From the NCBI GenBank assembly GCA_010671865.1, contig GCA_010671865.1_4083.1: a DNA stretch of 64,000 bases; one strand, written 5' to 3'. This stretch comes from a phage. How positions within the stretch are numbered: position 1 is the stretch's first letter; every line of letters starts with the position of its first letter. The notes beneath the pieces are model-generated. The model was given only the letters and a program-made list of their open reading frames with translations, did not search any database and had not been told where the DNA came from. Below are positions 38,448-62,728 of the stretch, in pieces. The position numbers and the translations under genes are program-made.

Positions 38448-38528
38448 TTTAATTTCTCTCTTTGTTAGGTGGGGAACTATTCCCCACTTGATGTAAAATA
38501 TTATACAGTACTAAAAACTATTGTCAAA
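38448..38528 (-). promoter_or_regulatory. promoter plus leader hairpin cassette
   Basis: TTGACA-16-TATAAT, hairpin GTGGGGAATAGTTCCCCAC; approximate. Confidence 0.5.
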
Positions 38529-38536
38529 CTATTTTA

Positions 38537-38737
38537 TCAAATTGTTTCCCATTTCATGTTACCCGCTTTACGCTGTGAAACAGGAATAAACATGTTATTA
38601 ATGTTACTAATATAACCGACCTGTAAGTCACGCTGTGAACCATACGCCCGACTTGCTGCATTTTTAGCACCGCGTTCTGATTTATAAACGCCGCTGGATA
38701 CTGTAAAGCCTACTACACCGAAAGTAAAATGTTTCAT
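38537..38737 (-). CDS. hypothetical protein
   Basis: 66-aa ORF; long leader with tandem promoters. Confidence 0.5.
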   Translation of the reverse strand: MKHFTFGVVGFTVSSGVYKSERGAKNAASRAYGSQRDLQVGYISNINNMFIPVSQRKAGNMKWETI

Positions 38738-39020
38738 TTTGTATTCCTCTTTGTGGTTGATGTAAGTATTATACTCGTTTAATTTCTATTGTCAAACTAT
38801 TTTATCAGGGGAGGTTTTCGTATGTCTTACTCCTGGACTACTTAACGGGGTTACTTATTTCGTTCCCCGTCCTGATGTAAAACATTATACTTGATTCTAA
38901 GTACAATGCAAGTACTTTTTAAAAATAGTTTTCAGTACTTGATAGTACTAGCCACCAGCAAACAATAGATACATTTATGCACCCTGTGGGCTGATTTGTT
39001 TCTATGCGTATATAATAGCA

Positions 39021-39049
39021 AAGGGACTGACCGGAGTCAATCCCTTTTT
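39021..39049 (-). terminator. bidirectional intrinsic terminator (repeated element, copy 3)
   Basis: hairpin AAGGGACTGACCGGAGTCAATCCCTT plus T-run. Confidence 0.55.
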
Positions 39050-39058
39050 CAATTATTT

Positions 39059-39208
39059 TTAAACTTGTTTCGGGTTGCGATAGGTGATAGCGTTCGGGTA
39101 CATTTGTTTAATGTTATTCCATGCCTGGTTAACATTGTAACCACTTGAGCGAATCAGTTGGTTACTACCGACACCTTGAAACACTACTTCGAATAAGAAT
39201 TCTTTCAT
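39059..39208 (-). CDS. hypothetical small protein (49 aa)
   Basis: hand-translated MKEFLFEVVFQGVGSNQLIRSSGYNVNQAWNNIKQMYPNAITYRNPKQV; GAGGTG RBS; approximate. Confidence 0.4.
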   Translation of the reverse strand: MKEFLFEVVFQGVGSNQLIRSSGYNVNQAWNNIKQMYPNAITYRNPKQV

Positions 39209-45259: not shown

Positions 45260-45742
45260 TTATGCTTCAACTTTGCGATGAGCTTCGATCCATTCCTCGC
45301 GAGTCATACCGCTTTCTTTGATAGCGTCCAGTACTACCGCAATGCAGTTACCGCGTACAGGAATCATATGTTCTTCCCCGTTATCAAGTACTACAGTAAC
45401 ACGTTCTTGAATCCATTTTTTAGGTTTAGATTCTGGCTTATCTTCACCATACTTAACCGCCAGGGCTTTATGTGCCATTTCTACAACTACTTCCAGATCC
45501 AATCCAGACACCGCCGCCTGGATACTTTCGATTGTTGCTTGTAGTTCTGCTTCACGGGCTTTTTTCTGTTCTTCCAGTTCTGCTACCTTTTTGGCTTGCA
45601 GTTCTTTAGCTTCACTGTACGCAATGTTAAAATTGTTGCGTACTGCTTTCATGGTATCGTTATCCAGGTCAGCCAACAATTCAGCAGCAATAACAGTATC
45701 GTTTGAAATCAGTGCTTTCAGGAATGATTTTACATTAGCCAT
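45260..45742 (-). CDS. hypothetical protein with predicted coiled-coil segment
   Basis: track ORF trimmed to MANVKSF (GAGGA RBS); heptad-like KELQAKKVAELEEQKKAREAELQATIESIQAA. Confidence 0.55.
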   Translation of the reverse strand: MANVKSFLKALISNDTVIAAELLADLDNDTMKAVRNNFNIAYSEAKELQAKKVAELEEQKKAREAELQATIESIQAAVSGLDLEVVVEMAHKALAVKYGEDKPESKPKKWIQERVTVVLDNGEEHMIPVRGNCIAVVLDAIKESGMTREEWIEAHRKVEA

Positions 45743-45939
45743 TTTATAAATCCTCAATTAAAGTTTAGTTTACGTTTATTAGTGTATCAAAGTTTTATCG
45801 ACGTGTCCAGTTTTTCGTTCGACTTACTGGCGGTCTACTTAGTGCTCCCCGTCTTGATGTAATACATTCTACGCCTTTTTGTGGTAATGTCAACTACTAT
45901 TTTAAAACTATTTTTAAAGTATGCAGTACTACGATACTA

Positions 45940-47812: not shown

Positions 47813-48424
47813 TTAATATTCGATTGATTCTACTACACCATCAATGACATTGAATTGATATTCGTTACCCTCAATCAGTGCCGTAATGTTTTCAGTAGTG
47901 AATTGATCCTCATATGCATTCTCTAAATCACGGTACAACTTGCGGGATAATTCACGAATAGTTTCAGTGAGTAGTTCCTCAAGCTCATTAACTAACGTTT
48001 CTTGTTTTGCGGTTAAATCAGTGTAAGCCGATTCAATGTACCCGCTTACAGTATTCTCATGCGAGTAGTGGGAGTGAGAACGCTTTACACTCATCGGCAA
48101 ATCATCTTCATTCAGCAGGTGACGGATTGAGCGATACTTAGTTAATGCTCTTACCTTGCGTAAAAACTTCACTGCGTCAACGTGGTCAGTACTGATTGAT
48201 GCACCGTCACCCTGGGACCAAAAACCACTGAATTGTATTTCAGCGTCATTAATGCCATATTCCGGCAATACTGTTTCTTTATAGTGTTCAATTTCACTTT
48301 CAGAAAAATAATCGTCGTTTGAGTTTTTTTCACGTTCCCGAACTAGTTCGATAGCTGACGTTTTTTGTTCTGCGTTCAATTCAGAAAAAGCCATAACATA
48401 AGTAGTAGTAGTGATAGTTTTCAT
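47813..48424 (-). CDS. hypothetical protein
   Basis: 203-aa ORF; GAGGG RBS; long leader with tandem promoters. Confidence 0.55.
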   Translation of the reverse strand: MKTITTTTYVMAFSELNAEQKTSAIELVREREKNSNDDYFSESEIEHYKETVLPEYGINDAEIQFSGFWSQGDGASISTDHVDAVKFLRKVRALTKYRSIRHLLNEDDLPMSVKRSHSHYSHENTVSGYIESAYTDLTAKQETLVNELEELLTETIRELSRKLYRDLENAYEDQFTTENITALIEGNEYQFNVIDGVVESIEY

Positions 48425-48647
48425 TTTGTAACCCTCATTCAGTAGTTTATGTAAGTATTATACGCTTTTAAAAACAATTGTCAAACTATTTTATCAGGGG
48501 AGTTTTTCGTGTGCCTTACTCCTGGGCTACTTAACGGGAAGTTACTTATTTCGTTCCCCGTCCTGATGTAAAACATTATACGCCTTTAAACATAGTTTGC
48601 AAGTACTTTTTAAAAATAGTTTTCAGTACTGAATAGTAAAAAAAAGT

Positions 48648-48676
48648 ATTGACAGCATTATCAAGTACTGGCATAA
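48648..48676 (+). promoter_or_regulatory. candidate plus-strand promoter
   Basis: TTGACA-17 nt-CATAAT on plus strand; same AGTACTGGCATAAT core as 46721..46749. Confidence 0.4.
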
Positions 48677-48851
48677 TATACCCCATGACAACAGCTAACC
48701 CACCGGGTGCACAATTGTAACTATACTAAACTACTTTTTCTATAGATACACTCCCGCACCCTATGGGCTACGGCTTATCTGCCAATGAATACATTATGCC
48801 AGTACTGACAAAATAAGTCAATACCGGCAATTGTAAAGATTTGTAAACTGC

Positions 48852-62657: not shown

Positions 62658-62663
62658 TTTAAT

Positions 62664-62693
62664 GCCAGTACTTGATACTGGCTTTCTTATTTG
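62664..62693 (+). terminator. intrinsic terminator between RCC1-like paralogs
   Basis: GCCAGTActtgaTACTGGC hairpin then TTTCTTATTTG. Confidence 0.6.
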
Positions 62694-62728
62694 TATTAAA
62701 TATAGTATAATGAATAAAGGAGGAATTT

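Follow-up and report, generated by a model that had tools for sequence, protein, structure and literature searches.

A predicted RNA element common to the early regions of a jumbo coliphage and of phage T7

We have identified three copies of a small structured RNA in the window (the whole 64,000 nt stretch of phage DNA analysed here), and their conserved sequence and pairing indicate that they are homologous to the RNA made between promoters A1 and A2 of phage T7. As read from the sequence, each site is a self-contained cassette without a gene, consisting of a sigma70-type early promoter and an RNA of 62-75 nt. The pattern of covariation argues that the conserved structure is that of the sense-strand RNA, and that selection acts on this RNA and not on the neighbouring gene. 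The element was found undescribed in the literature on T7 leaders, phage small RNAs, phAPEC6 and Asteriusvirus, our coverage of which was incomplete, so an older description is possible; the RNA family is thus apparently undescribed so far.

Three copies among the early genes

Asteriusvirus jumbo coliphages (121Q, phAPEC6, PBECO4 and G17) match the window at 89-97% identity, and it can be assigned to the early region of a jumbo coliphage of the 121Q/phAPEC6 type. The element is surrounded by a minus-strand array of small early genes, the function of all of which is unassigned. In relatives of the Asteriusvirus group, RpoD-like early promoters and UP-like elements have been described before short hypothetical ORFs (PMC5259590). 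The copies and their promoters are as follows:

38876-38804, minus strand: RNA element A, 73 nt, covariance model score 59 bits
48567-48493, minus strand: RNA element B, 75 nt, 55.8 bits
45858-45797, minus strand: RNA element C, short form without helix P2, 62 nt, 47.7 bits
38911..38884, minus strand: distal promoter of A, TTGCAT-16-TATAAT (-35 at 38911-38906, -10 at 38889-38884)
48602..48575, minus strand: distal promoter of B, TTGCAA-16-TATAAT, 10/12 match
45893..45866, minus strand: distal promoter of C, TTGACA-16-TAGAAT, 11/12 match
38795..38768, minus strand: proximal promoter of gene 38537..38737, TTGACA-16-TATAAT, 12/12
48484..48457, minus strand: proximal promoter of gene 47813..48424, TTGACA-16-TATAAT, 12/12

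An earlier note on this DNA had proposed a long leader present in at least three copies, diverged at gene 45260..45742. A covariance model built from relatives of the element does find exactly these three sites in the window (E 1e-12 to 5e-10), the next-best match scoring 8 bits, and a strict core pattern gives three matches against 0.00 expected from 100 shuffles. Copies A and B are 93% identical across ~83 nt, with C a shorter, diverged relative. Measured from the inferred +1 to the ATG, the leaders are 139 nt (A), 143 nt (B) and 116 nt (C), against the ~150 nt first estimated. The conserved segment had been put at ~100 nt; the transcribed unit is in fact 73-75 nt, and 62 nt in C, which lacks the first hairpin.

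The segment was correctly described as having no ORF. Neither ATG, GTG nor TTG occurs inside the element in the copies as read, and the copies differ in length by amounts that are not divisible by three; a small peptide was rejected on these grounds. A gene on the opposite strand was likewise rejected, as the plus strand across A, B and C contains no ORF that reaches 40 aa, and the 'hypothetical proteins' annotated across the element in some relatives are not conserved.

All three copies have a sigma70-type promoter directly upstream in the sense orientation, with the +1 positions inferred by homology with the annotated T7 A1 start (nt 498); for copy A the annotated start AUCGAGAGGG places +1 at A38876. 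The distal promoter of A, which lies downstream of an A/T-rich stretch, was missing from the promoter scan because its -35 matches at only 3/6 positions, and it aligns with the distal promoters of B and C. An intrinsic terminator-like site (45973-45952) directly precedes the promoter of copy C. The tandem arrangement claimed in the note holds for A and B, where the proximal promoter is a perfect TTGACA-16-TATAAT; that of C is weak (9/12). A terminator scan found no intrinsic terminator in or after A, B or C, and the element contains no U tract, so a discrete small RNA would need processing.

The surroundings contain further features. The stop codon of gene 38537..38737 belongs to a generic promoter cassette, TGATAAAATAGTTTGACAAT (38527-38540 and 38796-38809, minus strand), so that cassette transcripts begin AUCA and the next promoter region begins UGAU. 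A strong promoter-like site on the plus strand at 48649-48677 (TTGACA-17-CATAAT, 11/12, with an upstream TG) opposes the early genes from inside the long non-coding stretch upstream of copy B. Copies A and B are each closely preceded on the minus strand by another non-coding unit that is itself conserved (38925-39040 and 48625-48821), with promoters TTGACT-17-TATTAT (39040..39012) and TTGACT-17-CATAAT (48821..48793) and the common motif AGCCCAYAGGGTGC-N5-TGTATCTAT. The transcript of this unit at B is predicted to fold into one long, imperfect hairpin (-53.8 kcal/mol, z -3.95) with a U8 run behind it. RaK2, phiKp_21, CBB and Hallingskeid match the first 51 nt at 80-92%, and a single jumbo-phage record can contain up to 8 places that match the unit. 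Elsewhere, a hairpin-containing repeat, UUAAUACAAAUAAGAAAGCCAGUA...CUGGCAUUA, known only from weak covariance-model hits, occurs three times on the minus strand at intervals of ~1.2 kb (60229-60269, 61439-61479 and 62659-62699).

Fold and covariation

The family core is UAAGUAG-N4 followed by a stem of 4-5 bp (P3), whose hairpin loop of 16-17 nt carries the conserved sequence UAAGNCNNAYGAAAA; an outer helix encloses all of this. In the window the helices are:

Copy A, P1 (outer helix): AUCAGG 38876-71 / CCUGAU 38809-04
Copy A, P2: ACGGGG 38870-65 / CCCCGU 38850-45
Copy A, internal loop: UAAGUAG 38844-38 and UCCA
Copy A, P3: GGAG 38833-30 / CUCC 38813-10, loop UAAGACAUACGAAAAC
Copy B, P1: AUCAGG 48567-62 / CCUGAU 48498-93
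Copy B, P2: ACGGGGA / UUCCCGU, with one G-U pair
Copy B, UAAGUAG 48533-27 and P3: GGAG 48522-19 / CUCC 48502-499
Copy C, P1: AUC..GACG 45858-50 / CGUC-GAU 45803-797
Copy C, UAAGUAG 45841-35 and P3: CCAG 45830-27 / CUGG 45810-07

The minimum-energy fold of A is a three-way junction of P1, P2 and P3 (z -2.1), and B folds in the same way (z -2.07); z-scores for single copies are modest, at -2 to -3.3, and -0.4 for copy C. Among twelve long-form sequences, variation falls mostly in the P2 loop. In A and B the first nucleotide of P1 is the inferred +1 itself, and in the other non-T7 variants P1 starts no more than a few nucleotides away. In A and B part of P1 (AUCA / UGAU) is sequence generic to every cassette promoter in the window, which weakens the independent support for P1 in these two copies.

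A conserved structure in the leader, on which the earlier note had made its reading depend, was found: the fold is kept and is backed by compensatory changes. In copy C both strands of P3 differ from those of A and B, and across the family four types of P3 stem occur (CCUG/CAGG, CUUG/CAAG, CCAG/CUGG and GGAG/CUCC), with changes on both sides at three of the four core pairs. All four pairs are kept in each of 42 distinct covariance-model hits, none of 500 shuffles reached the P3 score and no slid register comes close. The first P3 alignment had been filtered for a paired stem, yet no hit with family-like flanks was lost by this, and pairing is also seen in four sequences obtained later by BLAST.

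The outer helix of the T7-like phages gives a second line of evidence. Among 27 distinct sequences, in whose selection outer-helix pairing played no part, 99.3% of cells are paired and all five pairs change on both sides (variants GUCAUC/GAUGAC, GAUUAG/CUAAUC, GUCGGU/ACCGAC, GCUAA/UUAGC and GUGAA/UUCAC). Pairing persists in contigs L022, L030, L068, L102 and L103, where the 3' strand is not a -35 hexamer. The non-T7 lineages form this helix with the RNA 5' end, and its sequence is lineage-specific (AUCAGG/CCUGAU, GACGG/CCGUC, CGGC/GCCG and CAUC..CGG/CCG..GAUG); between phage Hallingskeid and contig L082 a C-to-G change is compensated by G-to-C. The 5' domain of T7-like leaders could not be aligned and stood outside the MAFFT alignment and its evaluation, and the T7-like hairpin before UAAGUAG was left unscored because its register shifts between sequences.

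The G-U pairs (9/27 at one P3 pair, for example) are compatible with the sense strand only. The RNA core forms a near-invariant island in the alignment, with flanking protein 29-32% identical between jumbo phages; ~31 of 35 core nucleotides, counted by eye, are common to the window and phage 7t3, and ~25 unpaired nucleotides are nearly invariant across phage families with few common proteins.

None of this corresponds to a family in Rfam 15, which gave no match at the gathering threshold in the window, chance-level matches only on 38700-39100 at E up to 10, and nothing on the T7, jumbo or rV5-like loci. A resemblance in sequence to hammerhead and pistol ribozymes and to the guanidine-II riboswitch received no support from these scans, and the window contains no tRNA or tmRNA. 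A resemblance to the E. coli rrn leader (GUCGCAAGACGAAAAA) was also rejected: only ACGAAAAA fits the model (4.7 bits), and the rrnB leader of E. coli is not matched by the covariance model. In A and B, GGAG/CUCC and CAGGA could be read as anti-Shine-Dalgarno or CsrA sites, but these are not features of the family, because the stem elsewhere is CCAG/CUGG or CCUG/CAGG.

Relatives in T7 and other phages, and cassette shuffling

Relatives of the kind that the earlier note proposed to look for with a covariance model do occur in other phages. Copy C as query led to Yersinia phage phiA1122, and the equivalent sequence in T7 (nt 551-586) is UAAGUAG-ACAG-CCUG-AUAAGUCGCACGAAAAA-CAGG, which lies on the A1 transcript directly before the A2 -35 and scores 71.6 bits with the covariance model (R1) that was used on the window. 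The 5' ends are alike (AUCGAGAGGGA in T7, AUCAAGACGGGG in copy C and AUCAGGACGGGG in A and B). Taken as a whole, the T7 A1-A2 RNA (NC_001604 nt 498-594) shares with the element a similar start (AUCGAGAGGG against AUCAGGACGGGG), the UAAGUAG and P3 segments, a position between tandem sigma70 early promoters, and an enclosing helix with an inner hairpin. It differs in copy number, one in T7 against three in this phage, and in topology. The T7 outer helix pairs GUCAA (nt 541-545) with UUGAC (nt 589-593), which is also the A2 -35 hexamer, and in T7-like phages the 5' strand of this helix sits in the loop of the preceding hairpin to give a pseudoknot topology, whereas in this phage it is the RNA 5' end, giving the three-way junction of A and B. 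The literature that we searched contained no description of the T7 A1-A2 segment as an RNA element.

The core is present in 488 T7-like records, in one copy each and only on the A1 transcript, from phages of Escherichia, Klebsiella, Salmonella, Yersinia and other hosts and including one Cronosvirus. It also occurs in the jumbo phages 7t3, fENko-Kae01 and Hallingskeid, in the rV5-like phage LTH01 and on viral and metagenome contigs, whilst the long form is found at 88-95% identity in some Vequintavirinae (A73, W70, A7_1 and A5-4) and in the phi92-like Justusliebigvirus phages EmilieFrey, outra and muut. The element is shared by at least four unrelated lineages of virulent enterobacterial phages. 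No host or prophage copy was found in 5,426 E. coli genomes, and in 185,579 species genomes the sole real match was a mis-binned T7-like contig. In the phages examined, the next promoter begins 0-50 nt downstream of the element.

The earlier note suggested a riboregulatory leader or a small RNA processed from it. A leader specific to its gene is not supported by the comparison, since the downstream gene differs in nearly every carrier. At least eight unrelated genes, encoding unrelated proteins, follow the element in different phages. In G17 the homologue of gene 38537..38737 is absent, and the element with both promoters is kept, now before the next gene; most other Asteriusvirus genomes show 70% query coverage, which suggests that the gene is absent from most of these likewise (G17 alone was inspected). 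In Vequintavirinae and Justusliebigvirus the sigma70 promoter ahead of the element is different in each case, as are the promoter and gene that come after it, and conservation runs from the inferred +1 to the next promoter. The reading as a leader is thus supported only in part: the structure is conserved, but the element is an independent RNA module and not the leader of these genes. In jumbo phages (copy C, 7t3 and Hallingskeid) the gene behind the short form is a homologue in every case. After copy C this gene (45260-45742, minus strand) belongs to phrog_27871, of unassigned function; its C-terminal ~65 residues can be aligned with the H-NS DNA-binding domain of E. coli at 27% identity (pairwise E 0.001, with an H-NS sequence entered by hand).

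The junctions between cassettes point to the way in which they move. The A73 element is fused to a promoter and 5' UTR which, in this window, are those of the following gene, a junction that suggests crossovers at shared promoter sequence shuffle the cassettes. Gene 301, present in 121Q and not in G17, also lies at shared promoter sequence, and the A73 junction differs from it. The PeSL cassettes of T4-like phages are short conserved promoter modules that flank small early ORFs and act as crossover points, and they are composite terminator/promoter motifs defined at the DNA level (PMC2839356, PMC4122927). Gene shuffling around our element is equivalent, and like a PeSL it marks the boundaries of gene insertion, deletion or replacement between related phages. 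It differs from PeSLs in that it is not a terminator, lacking a U tract, in that it takes the place of an ORF, and in having conserved unpaired nucleotides and covarying helices.

Possible roles of the RNA

Our preferred reading, which we hold tentatively and at something short of even confidence, is that the element would give a stable early RNA whose conserved loops are displayed to a host factor. Host RNA polymerase would make the RNA very early in infection, and the conserved internal loop and hairpin loop would serve as a recognition surface for a component common to enterobacterial hosts, for which the RNA would act as a decoy or sequestering RNA. Release from read-through transcripts would depend on processing, which in T7 would be cleavage by RNase III at the R0.3 site and in this phage possibly by RNase E at the AU-rich GAUAAAAUAGUUU. 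With its 5' end locked in P1 the RNA should be long-lived, and it would not regulate whichever gene happens to follow. This reading is favoured by the near invariance of the unpaired nucleotides across families with few common proteins, by the retention of the element without its neighbour gene, and by the presence of several copies in the jumbo phage. It is also favoured by the arrangement in T7-like phages, where the element is on the A1 transcript only, whereas the boxA-like GCTCTTTAACAA follows promoter A3 (L011 445-460, T7 nt ~795-808) and is common to all three transcripts. Two observations temper these arguments. The 3' part of the T7-like element overlaps the A2 upstream region and -35, so conservation there could reflect promoter constraint, and the constant position of the short form before a homologous gene in jumbo phages would fit a role in cis too.

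A bolder proposal, which we consider rather unlikely, is that the element moves horizontally and yields a decoy RNA aimed at the host, which would serve anti-defence or host take-over and be among the first molecules made in infection. In T7-like phages its promoter is the first of the genome to enter the cell, and in the jumbo relatives the element is found close to the end of the genome, within the terminal repeats if the record annotates them. The pseudo-ToxI of phage phiTE is an RNA decoy, a tandem repeat that mimics a known antitoxin. The element would resemble it in being a phage RNA that is non-coding, horizontally acquired and, as proposed, directed at a component of the host; it differs in having no host counterpart in E. 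coli genomes.

The strongest competitor to a stable RNA product is a cis-acting co-transcriptional element whose structure, while still nascent, would remain with the host RNA polymerase that transcribed it, or act on it, in the manner of put, and we regard this as possible though doubtful. It would suppress backtracking, pausing or Rho-dependent or intrinsic termination, or aid passage through an occupied downstream promoter. Such a role fits the position of the element, always in the sense orientation right after an early sigma70 promoter with the next promoter 0-50 nt on, and its lack of a terminator of its own; furthermore, the outer helix of T7-like phages closes exactly when polymerase enters A2, and host transcription of the early region must run without interruption for the T7 genome to enter the cell. 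The putL and putR sites of phage HK022, which bring about antitermination, are two adjacent stem-loops that act on the polymerase that made them. The element resembles them as a structured non-coding RNA of ~70 nt directly downstream of early promoters read by host polymerase, but there is no match in sequence or architecture, the element being one enclosing helix with an inner hairpin in place of two adjacent stem-loops. With lambda nut and the rrn boxA-boxB it shares a promoter-proximal hairpin with an A-rich loop, and an rrn-type boxA does lie further downstream in T7 and some T7-like contigs, and immediately after the element (GCTCTTTAACAA) in two T7-unlike viral contigs (L042 and L035). 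However, lambda boxB is a 15-nt hairpin with a loop of 5 nt, against 16-17 nt here, and the window shows no boxA partner above chance (TGCTCTTTAACAA has 5 matches at two mismatches against 3.3 expected, none near the elements). The restriction of the element to A1 transcripts in T7-like phages, at one copy per genome, also speaks against a role in cis, and since the cassettes of the window have their own promoters and few terminators there is no obvious need for such help.

That P1 buries the 5' triphosphate, and so protects the distal-promoter transcript from 5'-end-dependent decay as in ompA, is a further interpretation, in which the element would be a 5'-end stabiliser or processing module. 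The start of P1 at or within a few nucleotides of the inferred +1 outside T7, and the presence of a hairpin near the 5' end in other cassettes of the window (38490-38470, for example), agree with this, but we think it quite unlikely: it leaves the near-invariant unpaired nucleotides unexplained, most mRNAs would come from the proximal promoter and lack the element, and in T7 RNase III cuts the leader off the 0.3 mRNA.

The idea of a riboregulatory leader that controls translation or stability of the next gene has little left in its favour beyond the short form with its homologous genes, and copy C, where the absence of a strong proximal promoter makes the element a real 5' UTR. Given the variety of unrelated downstream genes, the deletion of the gene in G17, the strong promoter that usually separates element and gene, and the lack of conserved complementarity to ribosome-binding sites (in sequences read by eye), it is very improbable. 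Least probable of all is a feature of the DNA only, either promoter architecture (a UP-like A-tract or duplicated promoter pieces) or a recombination scar carried by horizontal transfer: the T7-like ACGAAAAACAGG does lie at about -40 to -50 of A2, the 3' strand of the T7-like outer helix is the A2 -35, and shuffling at shared promoter sequence is visible in A73 and has a precedent in the PeSLs of T4-like phages (PMC2839356, PMC4122927), but compensatory changes in two helices and strand-specific G-U pairs are unexpected for a duplex DNA site, outer pairing is kept in the contigs named above where the 3' strand is not a -35 hexamer, and a fixed promoter register is lacking, the downstream -35 lying anywhere from 2 to about 50 nt from the element.

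In conclusion, the A1 region of T7 is among the most used of transcription templates, and it contains a covarying RNA that apparently has no name and that is common to jumbo, rV5-like and phi92-like phages. For annotation, this means that long intergenic regions with tandem promoters would be better read as RNA cassettes than as leaders of the next gene, and a covariance model is now available for finding the element. If the proposed host target is real, the RNA would represent a new class of very early phage effector, one that is directly testable in T7.
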